Positions 3,001-58,905 of a stretch of DNA of 64,000 nucleotides are shown here, one piece after another (position 1 is the stretch's first letter; each line of letters begins with the position of its first letter). The notes beneath the pieces are model-generated. The model saw nothing but the letters and a program-made list of their open reading frames with translations, had not been told where the DNA came from and did not search any database. Location: the NCBI GenBank assembly GCA_944391085.1, contig CALXSE010000003.1:54143-118142 (forward strand), written 5' to 3'. The stretch comes from an uncultured Kiritimatiellota bacterium. Its GTDB lineage: Bacteria; Verrucomicrobiota; Kiritimatiellia; RFP12; DVOR01. A program made the translations under genes and the position numbers.

Positions 3001-6000
3001 AGGATGGGGGAGGAGACGTCTTCCCAATACTGGTCGCGGGCGTAGCTGCCGAGGTAGTCGTTGGTGTAGTTGCTGTCCTCCCGGAACTGGAGGAGGAGGC
3101 GGACGGCGGAGCCGGAGCCGCCGTTGGCGGCCTGCGGGATGCGGTAGCGGAAGGAGACGGAGCCGAAGCCGCGCCCGCGGTTGTGGGGCGTGTAGAGGGC
3201 GAGCGAGGCGCCGGTGACCCAGTAGGAGCCCATGCCGCCGTCGCTCCGGCCCTCGGAGAACTCGCCGCCGTTGGTGTTCTTGCGGGAGCGCTGCATGACG
3301 AGGACCTGCCGGCCTTCGTAGGCGTCCTTGGAGACGGTGAGCTGGGCGTCGTCCTCGGGGCGGACCCAGACGCCGACGGCCGCGAAGCCGTTCGCGTCCT
3401 CGCCGCCGCCGCCGTCGGGGTTCGAGAAGCCGAGGTCGGTGAAGTCGGGGACGTTTTCGCCGTTGCGCTGGGTGTCGTCGCCGCACCAGGAGGTGACGGT
3501 GACGTTGTCGAGGTAGACGCCGGAGGCGCCGCTTTCGATGAGGAGGGAGACCGTGGCGTTGGCCTGGCCGACGGTGAAGCTGCCCGTCTGCGTGGCGCCG
3601 CTACTGGCATAGAAGGGATAGTCCACGCGGGCGCCGCTCTCGGGCTGGACGCGGAGGACGAAGCGCCCGGCGGTGTCGGAGGGCGGGTTCACGCGGGTCA
3701 GGGTGATGGCGGTGCGGTCGTTCTCGGTGCCGAGCGTCCACGCGCCCGAGGTGGCCCATCCCGGGCGATTGGACTCGCGCTTGGCCACGCCGTCAAGGAG
3801 GAGGGTGGTGGGGGAATTGCCCGAGGCGGAGGCATAGGCGACGTAACGGAAGGTGGGGCGGCATTCGGCGCTGTTCAGCGCCAGCCGGAAGCCCCCGCTC
3901 GGCACGGAGACCGTCTCCTGCGAGTACTTCGTGGCGGTGATCGCGGAGCCCGTCGCGGAATCGGAGACGCCCACGACAAGTCGGTGATCCGCATTCACCC
4001 AGAGGCCATAGCGATGGCCGGCCAAATGGCTGTGGTTCAGCTGCGCCGCGTAGCCGTCCCCGGAATCCTGGAACCGCAGCCGCGTGGCAGTGGAGCCGTT
4101 CCACCGGTAGAGCTCGGCGTAGACGCGGGAGGTGGGCTCGGCCTCGAAGTCGGCCGACGGGAAGTCGACCACCTCGGTGAGGCGAAGCTCGTAGGCTCGG
4201 TCGCCCCAGACGTCCTCGAGATAGTAGGAGACGGAGACGCCGGAGGGCGAGTAGGTCTGCGAGGCGTTGGAGGGGATGCCGGCGGCGATGCCGTAGCCCG
4301 CGCCGGGGAAGGCGCCGGGAGTCTCCGTTTGGACGAGCTGGACGCGGCCGGAGAAATCGTAGGGGATGGAGAGGGTATAGTCGAAGGAGACGGTGCCCAC
4401 GCCGTTGAGCTTGACGGACGCGCTGGGCTCGATGGAGGCGGTGGGCGTCAGGCGGATGGCCGCGTCGGGCATCATGGTGCCGTCGCCCAGGGTGGAATAG
4501 GTGCGGCGGAGGACGACCTCGGCGCCGCCGTCCAGGTCGAAGTATTGCGATCGGCCGTCCTCGCCATAGTCATCCGCGCGCAGGAGCCCGGGGTCGGCGG
4601 GGTCGGACGCGGCGCCCCACTGGGCGAACTGCCCGTTGATGGCGTCTGAGGTGTCGCGGTAATAGAAGGCGTAATCGGCTGTCTGCTCGGTGCGGCGGGC
4701 GACCCCGAAGGCGTCGGTGATGGAGGTGGTGCGGGCGAAGGGGCCTTCGTCGGGCATCCAGCCGGCGGCGATGGTGCGCTCGTCGGTGGCGGAATCGTGC
4801 CCCCAGTCGCGGACGTCGAAGCCGGCCGTGACGGAGGCGACGTTCTCGCGGAAGTCGGTGTTGGAGAAGTCGGAGTCCGCCTCCTCGGAGACGGCGAACC
4901 AGGAGTTGAAGTCCTGCCAGTAGGAGCCGCGCAGGACGATCGCGGGCGCGGCGTCGGCGAGGGTGACCTCGACGGCGACGTGGGAGTTGGCGATGTTGAG
5001 CGGGACGGCGAGGGGCGAGAGGCGCCCGGGGGCGTCCGCCGAGGCGAGGGTGGCGGTGGAGGAGGGGACGGCGGTGAGGGTGGGCGGGAGGGTGGCCGAG
5101 GCCTGCTGGAGCGTCTGGCCATAGTAGGTGACGGAGCCGTCGGGCGCGGTGGCGCGGATGCGGAAGCTGAGGATGTTCTCCTCGCCGGCCTGGTCGGTGG
5201 GGTCCTCCTGGCCGATGAGGTCGTCCGGGGCCCAGGCCCAGACGGCGGTCTCGTCCTCCTCCAGGCGCAGGACGCGCTGGACGTCGACGCGCCAGACGTT
5301 GGGGTCGGCGGAGGATGGGAGCATCTCCACCTCGCGGGTGAAGAAGGCATACTCGTTGCGGCCCTCGCCGTCGACGCGGTAGGTGGCCTCGAGGACGACG
5401 CCGGCGTGGGCGGTCTCCCGCTCGCGGAGATCAACGACGAAGGGGTGGGTCTCGACGACCTGCTGGCCGTCGTCGTCCGTCTGCGTGACGTCATAGGTGG
5501 CGCGTTCGACGCGGACGGTCTCGTGCTCGTCGATGTTCTCGCGGCCGGCGGCGAAGGAGCCGAGGACGTCGCAGGTGAGGCGGAGGTCGTAGACGCCGGG
5601 GAGGAGGCCGGTGACGGCGCCCGAGGAATCGGTGAAGAAGGCGCCCTCGACGGCGTTGACCGCGCCGGTGGAGTAGGTCTCGAGGGTGCCGGGGAGGAAG
5701 GAGGCGGTCAGTTCGGCCGTGTCGCCGGCGGTCTTCCTGTCCACGGAGACGTCGGCGGCGGCGTGCCATTGGGCGGTGTCGTCGCCGTCGGCGCGGCGGC
5801 GGAGGGCGATCTCGGGGCTGTAGCCGCGGGCGTCGTCGCTCGTGGCCTGGAAGACGACCTGCCAGCCGCCGTCGCGCGGGTAGAGGGGATCCGGCGAGAA
5901 GCCGGGGGTGGAGAAGTCGGCGGTGGGCGAGGCGGAGCGCACGAGCAGGTCGTTGATGGCGATGGCGCCGGTGTGCGTGTTGCCGCCGGGGGTGGCGCGG

Positions 6001-9963: not shown

Positions 9964-11427
9964 ATGGTTTGGTTTATCGGCGGCATCGTCGCGTTGATTG
10001 CGGGTTATTTCACCTATGGGCGCCTCATCGAGCGCCTGCTGCGGCCGGACGACCGGGCGACGCCGTGCTACGCGTTGGCCGACGGGGTGGACTATGTGCC
10101 GCTGCCGATGTGGAAGAACATGCTCATCCAGCTGCTGAACATCGCCGGCGTGGGGCCGGTCATCGGCGTGATCATCGGCATCAAGTTCGGCTGGGAGTGC
10201 TTCTGGATCATCCCGGTGGGGTGCGTCTTCGGCGGGGCGGTGCACGATTGCGTCTCGGGCTTCATGAGCGTGCGGACGCGGGGGGCGAACCTGCCGGTGC
10301 TGACGGAGGGCGCGCTGGGCAAGTGGTACACGCAGGTCTATTCCCTCTTCCTGATGGCGCTGCTGCTGCTGGTGGTGGCCGTCTTCATCAACGTGCCGGC
10401 GAACCTGGCCGCGGGGCTGGCCGCGCCCGTCGCGCCGGGCGTGCCGTGGTTCTGGGTCTTCGTGGGGGTCATCTTCCTGTATTACGTCGTGGCGACGCTT
10501 TTCCCGGTGGACAAGATCATCGGGGCGATCTACCCCTTCTTTGGGGCGGTGCTGCTGGTCGGCTCGCTGGCGATGCTCGCGTCGCTGGTCTGGAACGGCC
10601 TTTCCGAGCCGTGGCTCCTCACCGAGACCGAGGCCTTCAAGGCCGGGATGTTCCACGACCAGCCCATCATCCCCTGCCTCTTCGTCACCATCGCCTGCGG
10701 CATCCTCTCCGGCTTCCACGCCACGCAGTCGCCCATCGTCGCGCGCACGATGAAGAGCGAGCGCCAGGCCCGCGCCACCTACTACGGCATGATGATCGCC
10801 GAGGGCGTCATCGCGATGGTCTGGGCCGGCGCCGGCATGGCCGTCTACAACCTCTCCCCCGAGCTCATGGCCCAGCCGGCCACCCAGGCGCTGATGGAGA
10901 GCACGCGCCGCTTCCTGGGCTCGTGGATGGGCGCCGTCACCGTCCTCTCGGTCATCGTCCTGGCCATCACCAGCGGCGACACCGCGCTGCGCAGCCTGCG
11001 CCTGACGCTGGCCGAGCTCACGCGCGTGCCCCAGCGGCGCTTCGCCGCGCGCCTCTCCCTCTGCCTGCCGCTGATCGCCATCGTCGCCGCGCTCCTCTGG
11101 TGGAGCAACCTCAGCGCCGAGAGCTTCGAGTGGCTGTGGAAATACTTCGCCTGGGGCAACCAGACCCTCGCGGCCAGCACCCTGATGGTCTGCACCGTCT
11201 GGCTCATGCGCCGCGGCGTCGCGCCCTGGTTCACCCTCGTCCCAGGGCTGTTCATGACCTTCGTCGTCGTCAGCTTCATCCTCTGGTCCGACCCCAGCCA
11301 CGCCGGCTGCCCCTACGGCCTCAACCTCCCCATCCGCACCGCCTACGCCATCGCCGGCGTCTTCACCTTCTTCGCCGCCGTCGTCGTCGTCCGCCTCGGC
11401 ACCGCCAAGACGGCCCTGGCCGATTAG
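9964..11427 (+). CDS. cstA: Carbon starvation protein A family peptide/pyruvate transporter
   Basis: 487-aa polytopic membrane protein (MVWFIGGIVALIAGYFTYG..., PLPMWKNMLIQLLNIAGVGPVIG) typical of CstA. SD AAAAGGAAC precedes the ATG. Confidence 0.85.
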   Translation: MVWFIGGIVALIAGYFTYGRLIERLLRPDDRATPCYALADGVDYVPLPMWKNMLIQLLNIAGVGPVIGVIIGIKFGWECFWIIPVGCVFGGAVHDCVSGFMSVRTRGANLPVLTEGALGKWYTQVYSLFLMALLLLVVAVFINVPANLAAGLAAPVAPGVPWFWVFVGVIFLYYVVATLFPVDKIIGAIYPFFGAVLLVGSLAMLASLVWNGLSEPWLLTETEAFKAGMFHDQPIIPCLFVTIACGILSGFHATQSPIVARTMKSERQARATYYGMMIAEGVIAMVWAGAGMAVYNLSPELMAQPATQALMESTRRFLGSWMGAVTVLSVIVLAITSGDTALRSLRLTLAELTRVPQRRFAARLSLCLPLIAIVAALLWWSNLSAESFEWLWKYFAWGNQTLAASTLMVCTVWLMRRGVAPWFTLVPGLFMTFVVVSFILWSDPSHAGCPYGLNLPIRTAYAIAGVFTFFAAVVVVRLGTAKTALAD

Positions 11428-11584
11428 CGGATAGCCATGGGAGGGGCGCCGCCCCTCACGCCCTTCGGGCTCACGGGCGGATTGGGTAATTGGCAGGTTG
11501 GAGGATTGATTGGCGGGCGTGGGGCGCCGCCCCACGCCCCGGCAGGGAAAAGGTCTCCCTGCACCCCCGGCACGTCCGCGCCGC

Positions 11585-11621
11585 GCCTTGAAAGCACGCC
11601 CAGCGGGCGTGCTTTCAAGGC
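11585..11621. repeat. Perfect 17-bp-arm inverted repeat (hairpin) with 3-nt loop
   Basis: GCCTTGAAAGCACGCCC-agc-GGGCGTGCTTTCAAGGC. No flanking T/A tract. Confidence 0.8.
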
Positions 11622-11726
11622 CACCGCAGCCTCCTCTCCTTGGCGCAGACTCGTGCGGCGCGGGCAGACCCACACATGGCCGCGCCCCACCCTCGCGGCC
11701 CCGACAAACAAAATACGTCTTTAGTA

Positions 11727-11752
11727 TTGACGGGGGGGGGAATTGCTATTGT
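11727..11752 (+). promoter_or_regulatory. PEP-CTERM gene promoter containing a G9 homopolymer in the spacer
   Basis: TTGACG (11727-32) is followed immediately by GGGGGGGGG (11732-40), then AATTGC TATTGT with TG at 11744-45 (TGcTATTGT extended -10), 48 nt upstream of the ATG at 11800. Confidence 0.5.
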
Positions 11753-11799
11753 ATGTGCCGTCAAGGGTGCCCAGTGGCGCCCCGGAAAGGTACGTGAAC

Positions 11800-12447
11800 A
11801 TGAAGAAACTGGCAATTGCGGCCTTGATAGCCTGCGTTTTTGGCATCGGGACGGCCTCGGCCGTGACGATGAATTGGACGGACGCTGCGGGTACGCTCAC
11901 GACGACGAACCCGGGTTATGAAGACACCCTCACCGTCTCCCCCTCCACCACCTTCTCGATGTTGGTGACGCTCAACGTCAATAGCTACACGGGAGGAGAA
12001 AGGTGGAACGTCCTGGCGGCCAACAACGCCGATGGCACCGACGGCTTCCGCCTCCGCATCGAAAACCAGTGGATGCTGCTGAAGTACAAAGACGGCAACA
12101 CCGAGCGGGACGCCTCCAACGGCACCAACGGCAATCTCTCCTCCACCCTGACCTCCACCAACGGGACGCTGCGGGTGGCCTTCTCCGTGACCGAAGACGG
12201 CATCCGCGTCGCCATCAACGACAACGACACCATCTACGCCAACACGGCGGCCATCACGTTCGATGAGCTGACGAATTGGACCATCGGCACCCACGTCCCC
12301 GGGGTCGACCTCGTGCAGGTGGACGTCTACGAAGGCGTGGCCTGGACGGACGAGCAGCTCCACGCCGCCGCCATCCCCGAGCCGACCGCCCTGGCGCTCT
12401 TGGCGTTGGGCGTGGCCGGCGTGGCGCTCCGCCGCCGCGTGGCCTAA
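11800..12447 (+). CDS. PEP-CTERM sorting-domain surface protein
   Basis: Signal peptide MKKLAIAALIACVFGIGTASA; C-terminal IPEPTALALLALGVAGVALRRRVA is the PEP motif plus TM helix plus Arg cluster. SD GGAAAGG lies upstream. The track ORF starts 19 codons earlier. Confidence 0.8.
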   Translation: MKKLAIAALIACVFGIGTASAVTMNWTDAAGTLTTTNPGYEDTLTVSPSTTFSMLVTLNVNSYTGGERWNVLAANNADGTDGFRLRIENQWMLLKYKDGNTERDASNGTNGNLSSTLTSTNGTLRVAFSVTEDGIRVAINDNDTIYANTAAITFDELTNWTIGTHVPGVDLVQVDVYEGVAWTDEQLHAAAIPEPTALALLALGVAGVALRRRVA

Positions 12448-12469: not shown

Positions 12470-12501
12470 AAAGGCCCTTCGACAACCGCCGGAGGGCCTT
12501 T
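12470..12501 (+). terminator. Terminator-like hairpin plus T-tract after the PEP-CTERM gene
   Basis: AAAGGCCCT...AGGGCCTTTT. A second weak hairpin+T5 (GCCcttcgGCGtattttt) lies about 60 nt downstream. Confidence 0.5.
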
Positions 12502-12593
12502 TCATGCCCCCGCACGCGCCGCAACGCTTGCGCCGAAAGTTGCGCCGAGCGGCCAAAACCGCCCTTCGGCGTATTTTTCCGCGCAATTCCATC

Positions 12594-12633: not shown

Positions 12634-12687
12634 CAACGCAATTTCCAAAAAATTGCGTTGAAATCCGCCCCGAGGTGTTGTATACTA
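12634..12687 (+). promoter_or_regulatory. Fic gene promoter with overlapping 27-bp palindromic operator
   Basis: CAACGCAATTT-ccaaa-AAATTGCGTTG (12634..12662) has perfect 11-bp arms. The right arm overlaps the -35 TTGAAA (12659-64). Seventeen nt on is the -10 TATACT (12682-87). SD and ATG follow at 12711. Confidence 0.55.
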
Positions 12688-12710: not shown

Positions 12711-14045
12711 ATGCGCGCGGCGGTTGCGCCGGAACTCAACAACGCCGCCTTTCTGGCGTGGCTGGCAGGGCCGGGGGCGGCGACGCTCCCGGGGCTCTTG
12801 CGCACGGCCAAGGCCCAACGCGCCTACCTACCGTGGCGGAAGGCGCGTTACTCCGCGCCCGAAGGCCTCCCCGCCGAGGTCTGGTGGCCCATCCTCTGCC
12901 TGGCGCGCGACCTGCGCGTGGTGAATCCGGCGTTGGTCGGCGCGGGCGGGCAGCCCTTCCTGCTCTCGACGACGGACGAAATCCGGCGGTTGCTGCACGA
13001 AATCGACCGCAACGCGCCGGCGGCCATCCGCATGGACAGCGTGCGTGGGCGCGACGATGCCTCGGAACTGCGACGCACCTACCTCCAGCGCGAGCAGATG
13101 TTGGAGGCCATCTCCTCCAGCCAGATGGAGGGCGCCGCCACGACCCGCCAGGTGGCCCAGGAGCTGCTCCTGGCGAACCGCCCGCCCCAGAACGACGGTG
13201 AGCGGATGATCGCCAATAACTACGCCACCATCCGCGCGCTCGAGGGTTGGAGCAAGGAACCGCTCGCTGAAGGCCTCCTCTTCCGGATCCACCGCACGCT
13301 CACCGAAGGCCTCCTGCCCGAGGACGCCCAGGGCCGTTACCGGACGACGGACGACGTCCTCGTGCGCGACCGGGACGGCGAGGTCGTCCACCAACCCCCG
13401 CCGGCCGCGGCCCTGCCCGCGCGTATGGCCGCGCTGATGGCCTTCGCCAACCAAGGCGAGGCGGCGCAGGAGCCCTTCCTGCACCCCGTGCTCAAGGCCA
13501 TTCTCCTGCACACCCTCCTGGCCTACGAGCACCCCTTCCGCGACGGCAATGGCCGCACCGCCCGCGCCCTCTTCTACTGGAGCCTCCTGCGCGACGGCTA
13601 CTGGGTGGCCCCCTACGTCTCCATCTCGCGGATGTTGCGCCAAGAGCGAAAGGCCTACGACGAGGCCTACGTGGACATGGAATGCTGCCATCTCGACGCC
13701 ACCTACTGCGTCCTGGCGAACCTGCGCGTCTTCGCCCGCGGCCTACGCGACCTCAACGCCTACGTCGAGGGGCAGGCCCGGCAGACCGACGCCTGGCGCA
13801 AGGCCCTCCAAGGCCAATTCAACGCCCGCCAACTGGATTTGCTCGGCCACACCCTGCGCCACCCGAATTACCAATACACCGCCGCCGAGCACCAACGCTG
13901 GCACGACGTCTCGGCGAACACCGCCCGCGCCGACCTCGACGGCCTTGAGGCGCGCGGCTTCCTCCGGCGCCGCCAAATCGGGCGCGTGCGCTTCTACACC
14001 GCCACCGGCCTCTTCAAGGCCCTTGCCGAGCGGCCCGGGCCTTAG
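12711..14045 (+). CDS. Fic/DOC family protein (class II, internal inhibitory helix) with C-terminal winged-helix-like domain
   Basis: Fic motif HPFRDGNGRTARAL and inhibitory motif SSQMEGAATT, matching (S/T)xxxE(G/N). Start ATG at 12711 is preceded by GAAAGGAGGG. The upstream 145 codons of the track ORF are R/P-rich junk overlapping the neighbouring gene. Confidence 0.85.
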   Translation: MRAAVAPELNNAAFLAWLAGPGAATLPGLLRTAKAQRAYLPWRKARYSAPEGLPAEVWWPILCLARDLRVVNPALVGAGGQPFLLSTTDEIRRLLHEIDRNAPAAIRMDSVRGRDDASELRRTYLQREQMLEAISSSQMEGAATTRQVAQELLLANRPPQNDGERMIANNYATIRALEGWSKEPLAEGLLFRIHRTLTEGLLPEDAQGRYRTTDDVLVRDRDGEVVHQPPPAAALPARMAALMAFANQGEAAQEPFLHPVLKAILLHTLLAYEHPFRDGNGRTARALFYWSLLRDGYWVAPYVSISRMLRQERKAYDEAYVDMECCHLDATYCVLANLRVFARGLRDLNAYVEGQARQTDAWRKALQGQFNARQLDLLGHTLRHPNYQYTAAEHQRWHDVSANTARADLDGLEARGFLRRRQIGRVRFYTATGLFKALAERPGP

Positions 14046-45922: not shown

Positions 45923-46537
45923 TCAGGCCGCGCGGCGGCGAAGCGCCACCCCAGCCACGCCCAGCGCCAGGAGCGCCAGCGCCGTCGGCTCGGGCAGAAC
46001 CGCCGTCTCGTTCGCCGTCAGCCAGCCGATCTGCTCGGTGGTGAGGTTGCCGGAATAGGCGGCGGAACCGACGATGTCCCACGCGTCGTTGTCGTACAGC
46101 CACACGTTCAGGCCGCTCTTGTTGCCGCCTTCGTCGAACGAGGCGTAGAGATCGCCGTCGACGTAGATGTTCACGGTGATCTCGCTCGTTGAGACGGGCT
46201 CATAGTTGATGGCGATGGTGTGGATGCCGGTGCCAAGCGTCGGGCGATCGGCACTGGGCGACCAATTGCCGGCCTGATAACGGAGCGAGCCGTCCGTGTT
46301 CAGCTTCAGGAAGGCGTCGCCGTTCCAGTAGCCGAACTTGACGAGATCCGTGCCGTCCGCCGACACCGCCTGCGTCACGTCGACGGTCACGACGTAGGCG
46401 AAGGGGTTGGTGTAGCCCGTGCCGGAGATGATGCCCTTGTTATCGTAGGCGCCGCTCTCCTGCCAGGTCAGCGTCACCGCGTGCGCGGCGGAGAGGGCCA
46501 GTGCGGCGAAGGCCGCCGCCAGGACTGTTCTTTTCAT
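45923..46537 (-). CDS. PEP-CTERM sorting-domain surface protein (paralog of 11800..12447)
   Basis: Signal peptide MKRTVLAAAFAALALSAAHA; C-terminal LPEPTALALLALGVAGVALRRRAA is identical to the paralog. Real start at 46537. The track ORF has a 72-codon junk extension. Confidence 0.8.
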   Translation of the reverse strand: MKRTVLAAAFAALALSAAHAVTLTWQESGAYDNKGIISGTGYTNPFAYVVTVDVTQAVSADGTDLVKFGYWNGDAFLKLNTDGSLRYQAGNWSPSADRPTLGTGIHTIAINYEPVSTSEITVNIYVDGDLYASFDEGGNKSGLNVWLYDNDAWDIVGSAAYSGNLTTEQIGWLTANETAVLPEPTALALLALGVAGVALRRRAA

Positions 46538-46843
46538 GTGAAGGAATACCTCCCAATCGCCCCTACAACGTGCGGAGGCAGGCCCGGGGACGAAAACGTG
46601 CCCACTTCCGATGCCGCTTGGAGGTCTTAGGAAACCCGAGTCATGACACCAAAAGTGGGCACGCGACGCCGCGTGCTCGCAGTTTGGACACTGACTCTGA
46701 AAGTTCCTAAGTTCCCAAGCATGTCCTTGTGCGTCCGCACAAATCCGTGCCACGGCTCACCCGTGGCGTGCCACTAAGATACCACCGCCCGCCTCCGCGA
46801 CGCAAGCGTTTTCTTCCAAAGCCCCCTTCATTCAAATTGACGC

Positions 46844-49444: not shown

Positions 49445-49522
49445 TCAGCCCAAGAGGTTGAGCAGACCGCGCAGGAGGCTCCGCAGAGCCTCGAGCAAGA
49501 CGCCGATCAACGGGTTTTCCAT
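49445..49522 (-). CDS. Putative 25-aa amphipathic/hydrophobic peptide MENPLIGVLLEALRSLLRGLLNLLG
   Basis: Perfect SD AAGGAGGTG 4 nt upstream of the ATG (49520-49522). Below the track's length cut-off. Confidence 0.3.
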   Translation of the reverse strand: MENPLIGVLLEALRSLLRGLLNLLG

Positions 49523-49620: not shown

Positions 49621-50382
49621 TCAGTTGGGCACCGCGGTGACGAGGGTGTCCTTGTATTCCACCATGTAGAGCACGTCTCCGCCCATGCGGGTGCGGAAGA
49701 AGAACTGGAGGGGGACGCCGTCGCTGTCGAAGGGCTCGTCGTTGTAGAGGAGGACCTTGGTGGGGTCGCCGGTGGGGTCGCCGTACTGGTCGCAACGGAT
49801 CTCGCGCCCGGCGTAGAGCATGAAGAAGCCCTCGTCCTCGGCCTCGTCGTCCCACGTCAGCTTGGTGCCCTGCACCAGGAAGGGGCCGGGGCCCACGATG
49901 ACGCCGCGCGCGCCGCTGTTCACCAGCTCGGTCACGTCCGTCAGGGTCGGCAGGGTCGGCAGATCCACGCGCCGCACGCCGCTGCCGGAGGCCGCCGTGC
50001 GCAGGCGCGCCCCGACGGTGGCGTTGACGACGAGCCTGTTCTTGCTCGGGTCCCACGCCGCGTCCTCCGCCGCGAAGGTGCCGCGCACCGCCGGGGCGAA
50101 CTTCACCAGCCCGCTGATGTTCACCGCCCGGCCCGCGGAGACCAGCTCCGCCACCAGGTCGGCGAATTCGCCGAGCACCAGGCGGATCGTGCTCTCCTTC
50201 ACCGCGCAGCCTTCCCTGACCATCTGGCGCGCCACGTCCTGCAGGCCATAGGTCTCCTTCACCTCCACGCGCCCCACGAAGGTCTCGGCGCCGGCCTTCT
50301 CGGTGGCCAGCTCGTTGCGCACCAGCCGGTAGTTCACGCTCTTGAGGTCTCCCTCCGAATTGATCACGATGTCCGTGTCCAT
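49621..50382 (-). CDS. HU-like DNA-binding domain protein with DUF4469-like C-terminal domain (tentative)
   Basis: Real start MDTDIVINSEG at 50382 with SD GAAAGGAAC. The N-terminal stretch ESTIRLVLGEFADLVAELVSAGRAVNISGLVKF matches the HU/IHF-like fold. The 47 codons upstream in the track lie inside the 172-bp direct repeat and are identical to the spurious ORF at 54702..58553. Confidence 0.55.
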   Translation of the reverse strand: MDTDIVINSEGDLKSVNYRLVRNELATEKAGAETFVGRVEVKETYGLQDVARQMVREGCAVKESTIRLVLGEFADLVAELVSAGRAVNISGLVKFAPAVRGTFAAEDAAWDPSKNRLVVNATVGARLRTAASGSGVRRVDLPTLPTLTDVTELVNSGARGVIVGPGPFLVQGTKLTWDDEAEDEGFFMLYAGREIRCDQYGDPTGDPTKVLLYNDEPFDSDGVPLQFFFRTRMGGDVLYMVEYKDTLVTAVPN

Positions 50383-50398
50383 GTCCGTGTTCCTTTCA

Positions 50399-50570
50399 CG
50401 CGGCCCCCTTTCCCGCCCCGGGCAACCCGCCCGGCGGCGCCGCACGCCGGGGGCCGCCCCACGTGCGCACCCTCCGCGCACCCCTGACAGGCCGCGCGGG
50501 GAAAACCGCGCAACCCCTTCCAAGCCAACGCCTCCGGGATACTGACACCCCTGACGCGCCCCCTGACGCC
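50399..50570. repeat. 172-bp direct repeat, copy 1 (identical to 58216..58387)
   Basis: CGCGGCCCCCTTTCCCGCCCCGGGCAACCCGCCCGGCGGCGCCGCACGCCGGGGGCCGCCCCACGTGCGCACCCTCCGCGCACCCCTGACAGGCCGCGCGGGGAAAACCGCGCAACCCCTTCCAAGCCAACGCCTCCGGGATACTGACACCCCTGACGCGCCCCCTGACGCC is found identically at both sites by visual alignment. Identical spurious ORF translations in the track confirm the match. Confidence 0.9.
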
Positions 50571-50643: not shown

Positions 50644-51038
50644 CTCAAGGTCCGTCCATCTTTCCTCTTTCTTCGCTTCGGTCCTACAAGTGCGCAATTA
50701 CATTGTGGACGATTCAGCTTGACAGGGAGGGAACAAGTCTTGTAGCATTGGGGCAGATGGCGCGGGGCGTGCGCTTCGTCGGTTGGCGTTGGGCATGCTT
50801 TTCGGGGCCGGAGCTGATGCGTTTGCGCGTACGTTCGTTTCAGAGGGAACCATGGCCTTTCCAAGCCTGGGCGAAATGTGTCGCGGAGGCGCGCCCAAGG
50901 GGTGCTCCTTGGGGGTGTTTTCTCGCGTTGTGTTTCCAAGCGCGGTTGTGGGTCCTCTGAAGGACTTTGGGGGGAGCCTCACTGGTTGTTGTCTCTCCGT
51001 TTCGTCGTTGGTGTGAAAACAGGGATTGGAGAACGGTC

Positions 51039-54000
51039 ATGAAGCGGTTTGTCTTTTGGATTTGGGCGCTGTGTGCGGCGGCGCCGGGGTTTGCCGATCA
51101 GGTAACCATTGATGGGGTCACGTGGACGTACAGCGTCCGCTCCAGGGAAGGGGCGTCGTATGCGGTGATTGAGGAGGCCAGCGGGGTGCAGGGCGCGGTA
51201 ACCGTGCCGGCAACGCTGGGCGGGGCGCCGGTCACGGAGCTTGAAACCGGATTTTTCGGTATGAGCGGCGTCTTCTACGGATGCACCGACCTGACGGAGG
51301 TCCGCTGGGAGGAGGGGTGCGCGATCGAGAAGATCGGGGGGTATGCTTTCAGGGGGTGCACAAGCCTGACCCAGATCACGATCCCGCCTTCGGTGACGAA
51401 ACTGGGGAACCAGGCCTTCAGAGGGTCGGGGCTGGAGACCGTCACGATTCCGGGCACGGTGAAGACGCTGGGCGCAGAGGTCTTCGCGGAGTGCCCCGAC
51501 CTGAAGACGGCTGTCTTTGAGGAGGGGGAGCTGATAGGGGATAGTACGAGCTCTGTTGATTGGACGAATCTTTTCAGGAAATGTCCGGAGCTGGAGTCGG
51601 TGACGGTGAAACGATTGCCGTACATCAAGGAGGGGATGTTTGCCGATTGTCCGAAGTTGACCTCGGTGTCGTTGCCGGTGACGGTGTCTGAGATCATGGG
51701 AATGGCGTTTTCCCGGAGCCCGAATATCACCTTCACGCTCGATGCCGGGGTGACGAGATTCTCTGTCGAAAACGGAATGCTGCGCTCCGCGACGGGACTC
51801 TATTATGTGCCGGGGGACCCCGAACGACTGGAAATCCCGGACGGGATTACCGATATTCTCGGCGGCATCTGCCGGGGGATGACGAACCTGCGCGAGGTGA
51901 CCGTGCCCGACACGCTGAAATCCATCGGCACGTATGCTTTCTACGGGTGTGCGTCGCTGGAGGAGATCGATCTTTCGGGAACGCAGGTGGCGGCACTGAC
52001 GGAGAGCGCCTTTGCGAATTGCCCCGCGCTGGCATGGGTGCGCCTGCCGGCGACCGTCACGTCGTTCGAGATCGGCAAGACCTTCGACGGTTCGCCGAAT
52101 GTGCGCTTTGAGGTGGCGGAGGGGAGCAAAACCTTTGCCTCGGACGAACAGCACGCGCTTTACAGCAAGGATATGACGATCCTTTTCCTCGGCCCCAATG
52201 CGGCATCCTTCACGGTGCCTGAGACGGTGACGGCTATCGCCCCTTATGCCTTCGACGGCCGCGCCGCGCTGACGTCCATCACCATTCCGGCGAGCGTCAG
52301 AGACTTCGGGTATGATGTCTTCCGCGGGTGCACGAATCTGGCGTCGGCGAACGGGCTCTGGCTTGATGCGGAGCAGACGACCGTGCTCGGGATTGACGCG
52401 GGAGAGACCGCGGTCGCCGCGGAAGATTTCCCGGAGACCGTCTGGCGCGTGGCCGATTACGCCTTTTATGAAAACACGTCTCTGAGCTCTGTTGTCTTCC
52501 CCCAAAAAGTAACCTCCATCGGGGCTTCCGCTTTTTACTATTGCGGCAATCTGGGGAGCGTGACCTTCGCCGAGGGACTTGAGGAGATTCGGGACGGGGC
52601 CTTTTACGGTACCGGCATCGGCGGGGAGCTCAATTTGCCCGCCACGCTGATGCACCTCGGGGATCGGGCGTTCGGCTGGACGTTTATAACAGAGGTGAAG
52701 ATGGGCGGCGAGCCGGGGCTGCGCGATGACCCGAATCTGACGCTCGCGGGAAACCCTTTTTCCGAGTGCGAGTGCCTGCCTGTGGATCCCGAGACATGCA
52801 TCATGTATGAGACTGCCGTCGCGAACGGTCCCCGCGTGGTTGTCGGCGTCGGTGAATATCATGACGAGACCACCGGCTACACGCACTATAATGTCCGGGT
52901 GTCGGATCTTGTCTTTCCGGAGAGCGTTCGCTACATCCTCAGTGGGCTTGACATCAGTGATAGCCCGAGAACCATCACGACCACGGGGCCAATCTACAGC
53001 GTTGGGAGCGCCGCCTTCATAAGTCCGACTGCCAAGGTGCACACCATCACCTTCGGCGGCAATGTGGGCGTGGTGGAATCGAAGGCCTTCTATGAGCTTC
53101 CGTATCTGCAGGTGCTGACTTTCAAAGGAAAAGTCGGTACCATCCGCAGCAATGTCCTCTGGGGGACCCCTCGCAGTCTGACGGAGGAAGGCAGCCTTTC
53201 GATAACCTTTGAAGGGGACGTCGGCACGATTGAGGCAGGCGCCTTCGACGCCACTACCAGCCAGGAATCCAACGTGTACGGATGGTCCCCTTTAAAGGAG
53301 CATCTCACCTCGGTGACCTTCGGCGGAACGATCGGCACTATCGGAGAGGATGCCTTTCGCGGGTGCTCCTCACTGAAGACCCTTGCCGGATGCAAGCCGG
53401 CGAACCTTGGCGCAAGAGCTTTTTACAATTGTCAGGCGCTGACGGAGGCTCCGGACCTGAGCCTTCTGAGCGAGGTGCCGCAGGGCGCTCTGCTGAACTG
53501 CTTGAACATAAAAGCGGTCGACGCCGGTGCGGCGACGGTCATCGGACCCTCAGCTTTTCAGGGATGCGTGTCGCTCGTCTCGGTGAACGCCCCGATGGCG
53601 GCGACGGTGGGAAAGAGCGCCTTCAAGATGCTGCCCAAGAGCGGCGGCGGTTGGGCTACGGCCCTGACGGAGGTGACGCTGGCCGAGACCGTCACGCTCG
53701 GCGCGGAGGCCTTCAGCGGATGTGCCGAGCTGACGGGACTGAAGACCGCTTCCGGCGGTGAGCCGGTGGTGACGTTGGCGACGTCCGTCTTCGGCGGATG
53801 CGCCAAGCTCACCGGTGTCACGCTTAATCCGGCCACGACGGAGATCCCAAGTGGCGCTTTTTCCGGATGCGCGGCCATGACCGCCTTCCCCTGGCCGGCC
53901 AATATCAGAATCATCGGAGGTTCCGCCTTCAGCCGCACCGGCCTTACGGGAGAGCTGAACCTGCCCGCCACGGTGGAGAAGGTCGACTACTATGCCTTTG

Positions 54001-57000
54001 ACGGGTGCAAGGGTCTGACCAAGATTACGCTTAATTCCGCGCCGGAGCTGCTCACGCCCTTCTCCGGGTGCTCCGGCGTCACGGAGGTCGTCTATACGTG
54101 CGATGTGCCGGAGCTTCCGCGGGTGTGGGACGGCCTCACAGGCCTGACTTCCTTCACGGTGAACGGCGATATCGGCACGTCGGCGAATTTTGCGCTCTCG
54201 GATTGCGACAGCCTGGAGACGATGACGGTGAAGGGCAATTGGGGGACCGTCGCGGCCGGAACCTTCTATGACCTTAGCAAGTTCACGACGCTGACCGTCA
54301 CGGGCACCGTCGGCGCCGTCGGCGACTCGGCCTTTATGGGGTGTACGGCGCTGACTTCGGTGCCAACAATCGGCGATGCGTCCCTTGAGGGGGCCATCGG
54401 CAACTCTGCCTTCCAAGACTGCTCGAGCCTGGAATCCGTCACGCTCGACCGCGACATCCGCGCCATCGGCAACTACGCCTTCCGTGACTGCACAGGCCTC
54501 AAGACCGTCTCGATCTTGGGCGATCTCCGCACGATTGGCACCTATGCCTTTTCGGGCTGCACGGCGCTGAACAATCTGACGCTGCCGACCTCGCTGGTCT
54601 CCATCGGCGACTACGCCTTCCAGAACTGCAACGCGCTCCCAAAAGACGCTGACTACATCTACACCTCGGCAGACAAGACGGTTATTCTGAGCCGGGTTTC
54701 GTCATCGCCCAAGCTGACCACGCTCAGCATCCCCGAGGGCGTCACCATGATCGGCCCCAGCGCGTTCGCCTCGGAATACAATCTGACGTCGCTGACGTTG
54801 CCTTCGACCCTGAAGGCCATCGCCAACAGGGCCTTCTATAATTGCAACAAGCTTACGAAGGTCACCATCCCGGCCGGTGTCGTGACCATCGGCGACTATG
54901 CCTTCCAGAGCTGTTCCAAGCTTGCGACGGTGACCTTTGAGCCGGAGAGCCAGCTGGCAACGATGGGCAAGGGAGCCTTTTCCAGTTGCAGTGCGCTCAC
55001 GGGCTTCGCCTTCCAGCCCGGGGTGACGGCCATCGCCGACAGCCTCCTGAGCGGATGCGGCAAGCTGGCGGCGGTGACCTATGAGCCGGGCTTTGCGCCG
55101 GAGTCGATCGGGGCAAGCGCCTTCAGCGGCTGCACGGCGCTCTCCGCGCTGCCTATCCCCGAAAGCGTGACCGTCATCGGCGACTATGCCTTCCAGAACT
55201 GCGACGATTTGACGGAGATGGGCATCCCGGAATTGGTCACGGCCATCCCGGACAACTGCTTCAACAACTGTGACGGCCTCACCGCCGTGACCTTCGGGGC
55301 GCAGGTCACGTCCATCGGAGCCTCCGCCTTCTATGGATGCGCCAAGCTGACCACGCTGCCGGCGGCGGATGCCGATGGCATCGTCATCCCGGAGACGGTG
55401 ACCACCCTCGGCGAAGAGGCCTTTTATAATTGCAAGGCCGTGACGAAGGTTACCTTGCCGGATGTCATCACCGAGATTCCCGAGTCGCTCTTCTATAGGT
55501 GTGCCGCGCTGGACACGGTCAAGCTGGGTTCGACCGTGACAAAGATCGGCGCCTCCGCCTTCCGGAACTGCACGGCGCTGGAAAGCATCGAACTGCCCGA
55601 CACGCTGACCACCTTGGGATCGTCGGCCTTCAGCGACAGCGGACTGACCTCCGTGACCCTGCCGGACGGACTGACGAAGCTGTCCTATTACGGGTTCTCC
55701 GGGTGCAAACGGCTCGCTTCGGTGACGCTGAGCCCGGATACCGTCGCCCTCGACACGGGGACCTTCTACGGGTGTACGGCTCTCACGGCCATCACCCTGC
55801 CCGCGGGGGTCACGGAGATCCCTCAGGCCGCCTTCATGAACTGCACCGCGCTGGAGACCGTCACGCTGGAGGGAGTGTTGACCAAGATCGGCTATCAGGC
55901 TTTCAGCGGTTGCCCATCGCTCCGCTTCGCGATTCCCGAGACGGTTGTCGCCATCGGCGGACAGGCCTTCAAAGGGTGCGCGGCCCTTACGGAGATCAGC
56001 ATCCCGGAGGGCGTCACGGAGCTGGCGGCGAATGTCTTCCAAGATTGCGGCGGCCTGACGGAAGTCACCATCCCGGCCACCGTCGGGAAGTTCAACGCGA
56101 GCGCCTTCGCGGGGTGCGACAGCCTCACGACGGTGACGCTCGGCGGATCGCCCACCGCCGTGCCGAATGCGATGTTCGACGGCTGCACGGCGCTGACCAC
56201 CATCCGTCTGCCGGACTCCGTCACCACCATCGGCGACTCCGCCTTCCGGAACTGCACGGCGCTCACCTCCATCGATATTCCCCCCCGCGTGACCAAGATC
56301 GGGACCTACGCCTTCCAAAAGTCCGGCCTGACCTCTGTCGTCGTGCCCGACACGGTGACCTCGCTGGGGACCTATACCTTCCAGGGCTGCGCGGCGCTGA
56401 CCTCGGCCACCGTCGGCGAGGGCGTCGCCACGATCGGCAACTACACCTTCGGCGACTGCACGGCGCTCACGAAGGTGACGCTGCCGGCCGACCTGAAGGA
56501 GATCGGAAGATCCGCCTTCTACGGATGCACGGTGCTCACGGCCATTGACATTCCCTCCGGCGTGACCAAGGTCGGGAGCAACGCGTTTGAAAAGTCCGGT
56601 CTGATCGCCGCCGTCCTGCCCGACACCGTGACCTCGCTGGGAACCTATGCCTTCCAGAACTGCACGTCGCTGACTTCGGTGGATGTCGGCGCGAGGCTTA
56701 CGAAGCTCGACACCCGCACTTTCTACGGATGCACGGCGCTCGCGGAGGTGACGCTGCCGGCCGGCCTGAAGGAGTTCGGGAGCAGCGCGTTCCAGAACTG
56801 CACGGCGCTTGATGCCATCACAATCCCCGAGGACGTAACCAAAATCGGGAGCAGCGCGTTCCAGGACTGCACGGCGCTCTCGGAAGTGACGCTGCCGGCC
56901 GGTCTGGAGGAGATCGGGAGCAGCGCGTTCCAGAACTGCACGGCGCTCTCGGCCATCATAATCCCCGAGGGTGTGACCACCATCGGAAACTACGCCTTCA

Positions 57001-58181
57001 AGAACACCGGCCTGACGTCCGTCTCGGTGCCCGGCTCGGTGACCTCGCTGGGGACGTATGTCTTCCAGAATTGCACGGCGCTGACCTCGGCCGCCTTCGG
57101 CGAGGGCATCAACGCGATCCCCAATTACACGTTTTACGGATGCACGGCGCTCTCGAAGGTGACGCTGCCGGCGACGCTGACGGAAATCGGCGCTAACGCC
57201 TTCAACGGATGCACGGCGCTCACGGCCGTCACAATCCCCTCCGGCGTGACCAAGATCGGGAATTACGCCTTCCTGAAGTGCGGCCTGACGTCCGTCTTGG
57301 TGCCCGGGTCGGTGACCTCGCTGGGGATGTACGTCTTTCAGAATTGCACGGCGCTGACCTCGGCCACGCTCGGGGAAGGGATCACGGTCATCCCGAGCAG
57401 TACCTTCTACGGGTGCACGGAGCTGGCGGCCGTCACGTTGCCGGACAGCGTGACCACCGTCAATTCCAACGCCTTCGGGAACTGCAGGAAACTGGTCTCG
57501 CTCACCATCCGGGGCGATGTGCCCACTTCGGTGAACAGCTACGCCTTCCCCACGGGGAATTATCTGGCCGAAGGCGCCACGCTTTATTACCCGGCCGCGC
57601 AGGAAGCGGCGTGGAAGGCGGCGGCCGACGCGGACGGCAAATGGAAGGGCTTCACACTGGCCGTGCTCGCGGCCGTGGCCATGCCCAACGTCCCCGACGG
57701 CGCGGCAGGTTACACCGACATGGCCGTGCTCGAACGCCTTCAGGCCGCCGCCTTGGAGGCCGGCATCACCGACGGCACGTTCGACGTCTTCCGCCAGAAC
57801 AGCGACGGCACCGTGGTTCGGGAACTCCTCGCTCCGGCGACCGTGGAGGATGCGCTGAACTGCTTTGCCGGTCTTGAGCCGGTGGCGGTCACGCTTGAGG
57901 ACGGGACGGCCATGGTGGTCCTGCCCTATACCTTCGACGTCTGCGGCATCTCCGTCGAGGCGTCGGAGGTCGTCGTCACGGTCAAGGTCGAAAGCGGCCT
58001 TCCCGAGATGCCCCTGACCTTCGCCGAGGGCATCGCCTATGCCATTGTGCCCACCACGGAGGGCACCGCGCCCGTCGTCACCGTGCGGGAAGTGGCCGGC
58101 GACACCGCCACGCTGGCGTTCACCCCGCCGGAGGGACACTCCACCTACCTCTTCAAGGCGTCGGTTTCGCCTCTTCGGTAA
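51039..58181 (+). CDS. Giant (2380 aa) secreted BspA-type leucine-rich-repeat surface protein
   Basis: Signal peptide MKRFVFWIWALCAAAPGFA. It has dozens of about 22-aa BspA-like LRR units (IPxSVTxIGxxAFxxCxxLTSVTLP), with higher-order near-identical repeats of about 88 aa (264 bp) in the C-terminal half, and a non-repeat C-terminal domain. SD GGAGAA precedes the ATG at 51039. The track ORF starts 24 codons earlier. Confidence 0.85.
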   Translation: MKRFVFWIWALCAAAPGFADQVTIDGVTWTYSVRSREGASYAVIEEASGVQGAVTVPATLGGAPVTELETGFFGMSGVFYGCTDLTEVRWEEGCAIEKIGGYAFRGCTSLTQITIPPSVTKLGNQAFRGSGLETVTIPGTVKTLGAEVFAECPDLKTAVFEEGELIGDSTSSVDWTNLFRKCPELESVTVKRLPYIKEGMFADCPKLTSVSLPVTVSEIMGMAFSRSPNITFTLDAGVTRFSVENGMLRSATGLYYVPGDPERLEIPDGITDILGGICRGMTNLREVTVPDTLKSIGTYAFYGCASLEEIDLSGTQVAALTESAFANCPALAWVRLPATVTSFEIGKTFDGSPNVRFEVAEGSKTFASDEQHALYSKDMTILFLGPNAASFTVPETVTAIAPYAFDGRAALTSITIPASVRDFGYDVFRGCTNLASANGLWLDAEQTTVLGIDAGETAVAAEDFPETVWRVADYAFYENTSLSSVVFPQKVTSIGASAFYYCGNLGSVTFAEGLEEIRDGAFYGTGIGGELNLPATLMHLGDRAFGWTFITEVKMGGEPGLRDDPNLTLAGNPFSECECLPVDPETCIMYETAVANGPRVVVGVGEYHDETTGYTHYNVRVSDLVFPESVRYILSGLDISDSPRTITTTGPIYSVGSAAFISPTAKVHTITFGGNVGVVESKAFYELPYLQVLTFKGKVGTIRSNVLWGTPRSLTEEGSLSITFEGDVGTIEAGAFDATTSQESNVYGWSPLKEHLTSVTFGGTIGTIGEDAFRGCSSLKTLAGCKPANLGARAFYNCQALTEAPDLSLLSEVPQGALLNCLNIKAVDAGAATVIGPSAFQGCVSLVSVNAPMAATVGKSAFKMLPKSGGGWATALTEVTLAETVTLGAEAFSGCAELTGLKTASGGEPVVTLATSVFGGCAKLTGVTLNPATTEIPSGAFSGCAAMTAFPWPANIRIIGGSAFSRTGLTGELNLPATVEKVDYYAFDGCKGLTKITLNSAPELLTPFSGCSGVTEVVYTCDVPELPRVWDGLTGLTSFTVNGDIGTSANFALSDCDSLETMTVKGNWGTVAAGTFYDLSKFTTLTVTGTVGAVGDSAFMGCTALTSVPTIGDASLEGAIGNSAFQDCSSLESVTLDRDIRAIGNYAFRDCTGLKTVSILGDLRTIGTYAFSGCTALNNLTLPTSLVSIGDYAFQNCNALPKDADYIYTSADKTVILSRVSSSPKLTTLSIPEGVTMIGPSAFASEYNLTSLTLPSTLKAIANRAFYNCNKLTKVTIPAGVVTIGDYAFQSCSKLATVTFEPESQLATMGKGAFSSCSALTGFAFQPGVTAIADSLLSGCGKLAAVTYEPGFAPESIGASAFSGCTALSALPIPESVTVIGDYAFQNCDDLTEMGIPELVTAIPDNCFNNCDGLTAVTFGAQVTSIGASAFYGCAKLTTLPAADADGIVIPETVTTLGEEAFYNCKAVTKVTLPDVITEIPESLFYRCAALDTVKLGSTVTKIGASAFRNCTALESIELPDTLTTLGSSAFSDSGLTSVTLPDGLTKLSYYGFSGCKRLASVTLSPDTVALDTGTFYGCTALTAITLPAGVTEIPQAAFMNCTALETVTLEGVLTKIGYQAFSGCPSLRFAIPETVVAIGGQAFKGCAALTEISIPEGVTELAANVFQDCGGLTEVTIPATVGKFNASAFAGCDSLTTVTLGGSPTAVPNAMFDGCTALTTIRLPDSVTTIGDSAFRNCTALTSIDIPPRVTKIGTYAFQKSGLTSVVVPDTVTSLGTYTFQGCAALTSATVGEGVATIGNYTFGDCTALTKVTLPADLKEIGRSAFYGCTVLTAIDIPSGVTKVGSNAFEKSGLIAAVLPDTVTSLGTYAFQNCTSLTSVDVGARLTKLDTRTFYGCTALAEVTLPAGLKEFGSSAFQNCTALDAITIPEDVTKIGSSAFQDCTALSEVTLPAGLEEIGSSAFQNCTALSAIIIPEGVTTIGNYAFKNTGLTSVSVPGSVTSLGTYVFQNCTALTSAAFGEGINAIPNYTFYGCTALSKVTLPATLTEIGANAFNGCTALTAVTIPSGVTKIGNYAFLKCGLTSVLVPGSVTSLGMYVFQNCTALTSATLGEGITVIPSSTFYGCTELAAVTLPDSVTTVNSNAFGNCRKLVSLTIRGDVPTSVNSYAFPTGNYLAEGATLYYPAAQEAAWKAAADADGKWKGFTLAVLAAVAMPNVPDGAAGYTDMAVLERLQAAALEAGITDGTFDVFRQNSDGTVVRELLAPATVEDALNCFAGLEPVAVTLEDGTAMVVLPYTFDVCGISVEASEVVVTVKVESGLPEMPLTFAEGIAYAIVPTTEGTAPVVTVREVAGDTATLAFTPPEGHSTYLFKASVSPLR

Positions 58182-58387: not shown

Positions 58388-58482
58388 CCCCACCCCGCCG
58401 CAACCCTTTTTCCGCCAAAACCCGCCTTTCCCCAGACACCCCCCAACAAAATGTAACGATAGCGCAATGAAATCCGCCAAAA

Positions 58483-58592
58483 GTGTGACAATAACGCAAT
58501 ATCCAGAAAACAAGCCTTGAGCCCAACAACGCCAAGCACTCCGGCCCCCCCATAACGCAATGGAATTGCCAAAAAGTGTCACACTAGCGCAA
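58483..58592 (+). promoter_or_regulatory. Recurrent motif copies C' and C upstream of the second Fic gene
   Basis: C' (58483-58512) reads gtgtGACAaTaaCGCAATatccAGAAAACAagc. C (58580-58592) reads gtgtCACACTaGCGCAAcacag. Between them lie GAAATCCGCC (shared with the first Fic gene's upstream region) and GGAATTGCC (revcomp of GCAATTCC there). Confidence 0.5.
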
Positions 58593-58827
58593 CACAGCCT
58601 CTGAACGCTCCCCCCAGGCGCGTTGTTTATGCGGCACACACGATGGGCAGAGAGGCCCGAACGCGCTTCTGCAAGGTCGTCGCGCCGGGTTGCCCCACCA
58701 CCCGCACCCTGCCGGAACACGCCACACCCCCCTCCCAAATCCGTAAGTCTTTTTTCGCCGAAACCCCCATTTGTAACTTTTTTTGCCCGTTTGTAACTGT
58801 TTTCGTTTCCCGCCCAAACGCCCGCTC

Positions 58828-58856
58828 TTGTCGAATTGCCCACGCTGTGGTAAATT
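58828..58856 (+). promoter_or_regulatory. Sigma70-like promoter for second Fic gene
   Basis: TTGTCG (58828-33), 17-nt spacer, TAAATT (58851-56). It lies 50 nt upstream of the proposed ATG at 58906. Confidence 0.45.
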
Positions 58857-58905
58857 GTTGTGCGTTTTGAGGGGCCATTTCCGATCCCTCCCCCGTAAGC
58901 GTTTG

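Follow-up and report, generated by a model that had tools for sequence, protein, structure and literature searches.

The window, the 64,000-nt stretch of DNA that we analysed, holds a 372-nt gap between cstA (9964-11427, PF02554) and an open reading frame for a 215-aa secreted protein (11800-12447), and within this gap lies a run of G residues. Reading the sequence directly, we found that 11727-11752 is TTGACGGGGGGGGGAATTGCTATTGT and that the run is exactly 9 bases long (11732-11740, hereafter G9), the longest homopolymer anywhere in the 64-kb window. The tract sits 60 nt upstream of the 215-aa gene, between a -35-like hexamer, TTGACG (11727-11732), and TGC-TATTGT, in which TGC (11744-11746) is an extended -10 (TGn) motif directly preceding a -10-like hexamer (TATTGT, 11747-11752); these and the other parts of the unit described below are all on the plus strand. 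The first G of the run is also the last base of TTGACG, so that the spacer between TTGACG and TATTGT is 14 nt (8 G followed by AATTGC). An earlier note made from the same sequence had placed a G9 tract in a promoter spacer, which we confirm, but it drew the string as TTGACG-GGGGGGGGG, with one G too many, implying a spacer of 15 nt. Transcription would start near 11759-11760. A generic sigma-70 promoter scan did not call the G9 site because its 14-nt spacer falls outside the 16-18 nt range of the scan. In this region the scan gave the promoter of the Fic-domain gene alone (TTGAAA-17-TATACT, 12658-12686), and it found no further promoter-like site in the intergenic region between cstA and the 215-aa gene.

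Several other features surround the hexamers. Directly upstream of the -35-like hexamer is a conserved A/T-rich block, CAAAATACGTCTTTAGTA (11709-11726), a possible activator site or UP-like element; AAATAAGTCTTTA is kept at a second genomic locus and in lineages with about 70% protein identity, and the DNA further upstream of it is unalignable. Between the end of cstA at 11427 and the promoter lies a perfect 17-bp stem-loop, CCTTGAAAGCACGCCC-AGC-GGGCGTGCTTTCAAGG (11585-11621; RNA fold -35.5 kcal/mol, z = -6.2, 0 of 200 shuffles as good), which probably terminates or insulates cstA transcription and may be a repeat element or a terminator that lacks a T-run. This stem-loop is partly degraded in L035, a relative discussed below. 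Behind the 215-aa gene is a terminator-like hairpin ending in TTTT (12470-12502; RNA fold -22.9 kcal/mol, z = -2.9, 0 of 200 shuffles as good), which a strict terminator scan did not call. Given hairpins on both sides, the gene looks insulated and monocistronic. Its translation signal is a Shine-Dalgarno-like GGAAAGG (11784-11790) that is kept in lineages A-C (the window-type, L041-type and second-locus haplotypes, respectively) and reads GGGAAGG in the distant homologue L064. The minimum free energy fold of the 5' UTR contains a short hairpin, GGGTGCC-CAGT-GGCGCCC (11765-11782), the stem of which is invariant in lineages A and B, and the second locus has a different hairpin in the same place. 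We rejected the 5' UTR hairpin as a functional element, as its fold is no better than shuffles (z = -0.9) and it shows no covariation. An Rfam search over 11400-11900 of the window matched no family even at E ≤1.

The presence of a G9 run is in itself little surprise. The window is 69.6% GC, and in Markov-simulated 64-kb sequences of orders 0, 1 and 2 the mean number of G/C runs of at least 9 was 6.0, 2.7 and 0.8, respectively, against the one observed. G9 is unremarkable in such simulations at about 70% GC, and we rejected base composition as support for the tract; since its presence alone is expected from composition, the weight of G9 rests on comparative data. A reading of the tract as an upstream ORF or a frameshift site was also rejected, as the ORFs that cross it are the usual spurious frames of high-GC DNA and it lies upstream of every plausible start.

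The 215-aa protein has a signal peptide (MKKLAIAALIACVFGIGTASA, by inspection) at its N-terminus, a lectin-like beta-sandwich of about 165 aa, and a C-terminal PEP-CTERM anchor, IPEPTALALLALGVAGVALRRRVA, in which the PEP motif, the hydrophobic helix and the basic cluster are all present. It passes the cutoffs of both PEP-CTERM models (PF07589, 27.5 bits with a cutoff of 20.7; TIGR02595, 20.5 with a cutoff of 16). The match to the flocculation protein PepA (NF033554) covers residues 31-213 and scores 29.8 bits, short of the equivalog cutoff of 80, and the resemblance to PepA is distant only. An AlphaFold model made with 23 homologues is an all-beta sandwich (pLDDT 79, pTM 0.75), and the best PDB matches of this model are galectins, LamG/neurexin domains and CBM66 (E about 1e-6, TM 0.4-0.55). 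As modelled, the protein has a concanavalin-like lectin fold, an assignment that holds at the fold level only, and it would be located at the cell surface. Among the 23 homologues that were aligned, every coding sequence is intact and the anchor is conserved throughout.

To judge from the neighbouring cstA, for which the closest protein identity is 95%, the relatives of this bacterium are ‘Candidatus Spyradenecus’ MAGs (gut Kiritimatiellae). We scanned species-representative genomes via this cstA gene, which gave 33 loci, and found the PEP-CTERM gene beside cstA in only two of these species-level genomes, L035 and L005. It is missing between cstA and the Fic gene in the other 31 (L004, L007 and most of L006-L036), and we therefore regard it as a presence/absence accessory cassette. 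In L004, for example, the Fic promoter follows about 200 nt after cstA, without the PEP-CTERM gene. Of the species-representative MAGs, L035 comes closest to the window, with 92% protein identity; over 5764-5850 it shows a G5 tract with an 11-nt spacer, and an ATA replaces the ATG start codon, with an in-frame GTG 6 nt upstream. In this lineage the PEP-CTERM gene may be locked OFF or decaying. Searches of JGI metagenomes gave no matches in an exact-pattern scan with the -10/5' UTR motif and four loci in a family-profile scan, of which the only full-length relative is L061 (29% identity).

We compared the promoter across 34 related Kiritimatiellae contigs (‘Ca. Spyradenecus’-like) that come from gut metagenomes and MAGs, 33 of them tabulated together and L070 in addition, all chosen as encoding an identical protein or homologues at 51-99% identity. 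Across these contigs the tract is G5, 7, 8, 9, 10, 11, 12, 13, 15 or 16, and it is interrupted in one distant homologue, while the TTGAC and TGCTAT flanks are invariant. The tract is G9 in the window and in L001, L002 and L003, and in the closest other strain, L070 (98.9% identical to the window), it is G16 followed by AGGAAAA. Contigs L038 and L039, which encode an identical protein, have G12 and G11; L040 has G7, L037 has G9 followed by AAA, and L035 has G5 followed by AAA. The tract is G10 in L041-45 and L005, and G5 in L068 and L069. Two further sets with identical proteins vary within themselves, L046-50 reading G13, G10, G12, G10 and G10, and L053-57 reading G8, G9, G7, G9 and G12. About 8 or more uninterrupted G or C suffice for a tract to slip, a length that the G9 of the window reaches, and most relatives have G7-G16. 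The resulting spacers range from 11 to 26 nt with a mode of 16-17 nt, and 18 of the 34 are 16-18 nt long. A spacer of 16-17 nt is the sigma-70 optimum.

The same promoter cassette is found at a second locus, between genes for pyruvate phosphate dikinase (PPDK) and a DUF5672 protein (L062, L063 and L065-L067, locus positions about 340-1420). There the cassette, AGAAATAAGTCTTTATGGTTGAC-Gn-..TGCTATCGT, precedes a 70%-identical homologue, and the tract reads G9T, G12, G15, G12 and G12 in the order of the contigs named.

Sequences that are otherwise alike give the closest view of how fast the tract changes. Four contigs from four samples (L053, L054, L055 and L056), which encode an identical protein, have 0 mismatches over 1.7-2.4 kb, and their sole difference is the tract (G8, G9, G7 and G9). 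L048 and L049 are separated by 1 mismatch and read G12 and G10, and L070 differs from the window by G16 versus G9 at 98.9% identity. Because L053-L056 differ in the tract only, we roughly estimate that mutations of the tract would outpace substitutions at a single site by orders of magnitude. There are also clonal groups without tract variation (G10 in 6 contigs, G9 in 4), some of which are perhaps the same reads assembled again. A comparison of tract length across metagenome strains had been proposed as a check on phase variation here, and the range found, G5-G16 with invariant flanks, is as that hypothesis predicts. The phase-variation reading of the earlier note is thereby supported at the sequence level, by tract polymorphism among contigs with 0 other mismatches.

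That the hexamers are the promoter elements is suggested by what is conserved around the tract. An alignment of 8 haplotypes shows no variation in TTGAC, in part of the G run, in TGCTAT..T or in the upstream A/T-rich AAATAAGTCTTTA. TTGAC is invariant in this alignment and in 34 of 34 related contigs, down to 51% protein identity, and TGC is invariant in all haplotypes. Within the -10-like hexamer TAT..T is invariant, and other lineages read TATCGT or TATCAT. The most distant homologue, L064 (51% protein identity), reads TTGACG-GGAGTGGGCAAAAGTTGC-TATCAT and has no homopolymer; its interrupted spacer begins GGAGTGGGC and is 18 nt long. We read the hexamers as a promoter because L064 keeps both, 18 nt apart, without the homopolymer. 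The site would thus fit a -35/-10 promoter with a slippery spacer.

These observations lead us to propose, as the reading we consider probable on moderate confidence, that the site is a promoter-spacer contingency locus (phase or ‘volume’ variation) of the Neisseria porA/opc type, acting through changes in tract length. The G9 homopolymer would gain or lose Gs by slipped-strand mispairing at replication, and the number of Gs would set the -35/-10 distance in a sigma-70-type promoter, TTGACG-N-TGcTATTGT. This distance would in turn set promoter strength, in steps that are heritable and potentially reversible, and the product of the monocistronic gene behind this promoter would be a surface protein with a lectin fold and a PEP-CTERM anchor, made by a bacterium of the gut Kiritimatiellae. 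By analogy with porA, we predict that the window allele (G9, 14-nt spacer) is low or OFF, and that G11-G12, lengths seen in L039 and L038, give the ON state of the window lineage with spacers of 16-17 nt. The extended -10 might allow some basal activity, and it could make the promoter partly -35-independent, which would blunt the effect of length. We count in favour of the switch that lineages sharing about 70% protein identity retain the tract, which is also found at a second locus (G9T, G12, G15). Several points run counter to it, however. Some alleles are far from a functional spacing (11, 12 and 26 nt), the G5 alleles are too short for ready reversal, so that decay fits them as well as switching, and the window allele needs 2 or 3 more Gs to reach 16-17 nt, which is more than one step. 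We infer both the effect of tract length on transcription and a frequent, reversible switching within a clone from tract comparisons that are all between samples and drawn from assembled consensus sequences.

Differences in tract length could in principle be sequencing or assembly errors at poly-G. Illumina accuracy falls in long G runs, one-G differences such as G12 versus G11 in L038 and L039 could be noise, and the L051 and L052 contigs start at or just past the tract. The differences seen here, however, amount to as many as 5-7 bases (7 versus 12, 9 versus 16), which is beyond homopolymer miscalls, and groups of 100%-identical contigs made by different assemblers agree on the tract (G10 in 6 contigs, G9 in L001, L002 and the window, and G5 in 2). 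Such groups are partly perhaps re-assemblies of the same reads, and are good technical controls but weak biological ones. Contigs that differ slightly agree as well, as L003, 4 SNPs from the other G9 contigs, is also G9, and L066 and L067, 4 SNPs apart, are both G12. Control runs in the same contigs are constant: in L070, where the promoter tract is G16, both coding G8 runs (at 9029 and at 14354) keep this length, and in L035, where the promoter tract is G5, so does the run at 9029. As for the contig starts (L051, L052, and L056 at 12 nt before the -35), we considered them as a sign of within-sample heterogeneity and rejected this; this promoter is common to two strains present in sample ERZ17292902, which alone is enough to break de Bruijn assembly, and the breaks are uninformative for the artefact reading too. 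Spacing at the neighbouring Fic promoter, about 900 nt downstream, is 17 nt in 30 of 31 loci despite 5 different spacer sequences; sigma-70-like promoters with 17-nt spacing are the norm in this clade, with intergenic length normally stable. Taken together, we regard artefact as a very remote explanation of the length differences.

Two further readings accept that the tract is hypermutable and differ in what follows from it. One keeps the phase-variable outcome and takes TGcTATTGT as an extended -10 promoter, with AAATAAGTCTTTA..TTGAC as an activator or UP site whose distance from the -10, or helical phase relative to it, is set by the tract, as in Bordetella fim2/fim3. The invariance of the TGn motif is in keeping with this, as is the conserved block, which reaches some 18 nt beyond TTGAC on its upstream side and is retained at the second locus too, and the 26-nt spacer of L070, a single case, is about one helical turn past 16-17 nt. 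TTGACG is nonetheless a near-consensus -35, the spacer mode of 16-17 nt and the 18 nt of the tract-less L064 suit a plain -35/-10 promoter, and no candidate activator was identified, all of which makes an activator-spacing role unlikely in our judgement. The other reading holds that the tract is a neutral mutational hot spot in the promoter of a dispensable accessory gene, with many lineages losing expression and no adaptive switching. It would account for the non-functional spacings (11, 12 and 26 nt) and the short, ‘locked’ G5 tracts, for the pairing of G5 with the ATG-to-ATA change in L035, for the interrupted tract of L062 (G9T), and for the lack of the gene at this position in 31 of the 33 related genomes at species level. 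Yet long pure G tracts persist over about 30% protein divergence and at two loci, where neutral ones would be expected to shrink or be interrupted; the coding sequence is intact and the anchor conserved in 23 of 23 aligned homologues; and the spacers cluster at the optimum of 16-17 nt that would be named a priori. We therefore hold neutral decay to be doubtful.

If the site is a promoter-spacer switch, it would have close counterparts in other bacteria. In Bordetella pertussis fim2/fim3 a poly-C tract sets the distance from the BvgA activator site to the -10, and in Haemophilus influenzae a TA dinucleotide repeat is common to the divergent promoters of hifA and hifB. Like the present site, these have a repeat tract inside the promoter of a surface-structure gene; here, unlike in hif, the tract is a mononucleotide one and there is no divergent gene, and unlike in fim there is no known activator. 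A promoter repeat tract that alters the spacing of elements for a surface structure was described by van Ham 1993, as cited in PMC5084427. The nearest likeness is porA of Neisseria meningitidis, in which a poly-G tract lies between -35 and -10, and 11G gives high expression, 10G 2.2-fold lower and 9G 13-fold lower expression (PMC3639595). Homopolymers of the porA and opc promoters go back to van der Ende 1995 and Sarkari 1994, again as cited in PMC5084427. As in porA (and also opc and the poly-C of fetA), a G/C homopolymer of about 9-13 nt here would separate the -35 and -10 of a surface-protein gene, and strains differ in its length. In contrast to porA and opc, the host is a member of the Kiritimatiellota (PVC superphylum) and an uncultured gut commensal, and the target is a small lectin-fold PEP-CTERM protein in place of a porin or Opa-like protein. 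The range is also wider than in porA (G5-G16), the tract abuts the -35, and the case here is known from sequence, that of porA from measured expression.

Closer in phylogeny, Amuc_1413 of Akkermansia muciniphila undergoes G9 phase variation affecting a cell-envelope/EPS function, with genomes at 8G, 9G and 10G (PMC13055324). This is likewise a G9 tract in a gut member of the PVC superphylum that varies in length among genomes, but it lies inside the coding sequence and acts as a frameshift ON/OFF switch, whereas the effect of the promoter-spacer tract would be to tune transcription like a volume control. Proteins with a PEP-CTERM sorting domain are enriched beside invertible promoters in a defined gut community (PMC11892184); the same class of protein is thus already known to phase-vary, there by site-specific inversion by an invertase and not by repeat slippage. 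A full-text literature search for ‘Kiritimatiellae’ and ‘phase variation’ together found no paper.

Most of what is known of phase variation in gut commensals concerns the invertons of Bacteroidota and coding-region repeats, and PEP-CTERM proteins are abundant in PVC bacteria and poorly understood. The mechanism proposed here would be a classical one; what would be new, as the comparisons support, is the presence of promoter switching by a simple sequence repeat (SSR) in an uncultured gut phylum. A promoter tract that is conserved and yet hypervariable would mark the lectin-like protein as one that the bacterium gains from switching, such as an adhesin, an antigen or a receptor for phage, and the lectin-like PEP-CTERM family as a likely target of fluctuating selection. 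Tract length is also a simple marker that can be read in existing metagenomes and could be related to host state or metatranscript levels. For MAG annotation there is a caution, in that the assembled allele (G9, 14-nt spacer) would be one state of a variable locus.

We put forward a broader version of the promoter-spacer switch only tentatively, as possible but short of an even chance. The AAATAAGTCTTTA block, TTGAC, the poly-G tract and TGCTATnnT would form a portable conserved cassette that stands before small lectin-fold PEP-CTERM genes at no fewer than two loci. Together with runs in L061 and L011, this cassette would make up a multi-locus SSR ‘phasome’, the first for the phylum, with which an uncultured commensal would vary its glycan-binding surface proteins in response to host immunity, phage or mucus. 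In a bolder form of this version, the 11-26 nt range would reflect helical-phase control from an upstream activator site in place of simple -35/-10 spacing. In L061 (980-989, metagenome contig OOCM01004896.1) an unrelated PEP-CTERM gene (29% identity) has TTGACC-TTTCGTCAC-G10-TACAAT, in which G10 abuts the -10 of a near-consensus promoter; its spacer is 19 nt and would be 17 nt with G8. L061 is a candidate for a second, independent poly-G promoter spacer. In L011 (2774-2782), a related Lentisphaeraceae/Kiritimatiellae MAG, a G9 run lies directly upstream of a -35-like TTGACA, and the gene behind it encodes a 275-aa secreted protein that is not PEP-CTERM.

Elsewhere in the window is a second PEP-CTERM gene (45923-46537). 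The description of this gene as a paralogue needs qualifying: it is on the minus strand, and its identity to the 215-aa protein is only 37% over 159 aa, much of it in the anchor. The accompanying contrast, by which one of the two genes would be switchable, does hold, as there is no homopolymer of at least 6 within 170 nt upstream of 45923-46537. This gene has a leader of about 230 nt (46538-46800, minus strand) after a promoter-like TTGCGT-18-TATCTT, and the leader contains a hairpin, GCCACGG-GTGA-GCCGTGGC, and matches no Rfam family at the gathering score.

A G7 run at 49553-59, to which attention had also been drawn, is present about 25-30 nt upstream of the Shine-Dalgarno sequence of a 25-aa minus-strand ORF, and is one of 12 G7/C7 runs in the window. 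The ORF (MENPLIGVLLEALRSLLRGLLNLLG, 49445-49522, minus strand) has a strong Shine-Dalgarno sequence, AGGAGGTG, and lies downstream of a 300-aa gene (49621-50523); the run, C7 on that strand and G7 on the plus strand, is in the GC-rich gap between the two. At the gene for the Fic-domain protein (12711-14045), the -35 TTGAAA is overlapped by a perfect inverted repeat of 10 nt, AACGCAATTT-CCAAA-AAATTGCGTT (12635-12663), and lineages in which the promoter spacer has diverged retain a form of this repeat, TTGCAATTTC..GAATTGCA. By its sequence this repeat looks like an operator. Finally, between a 2404-aa gene (50967-58181) and an ORF at 58783-60414, the stretch 58400-59000 dips to 55-58% GC with strong skews and short runs (T7, T6 and several C6), and is probably an ordinary regulatory intergenic region.
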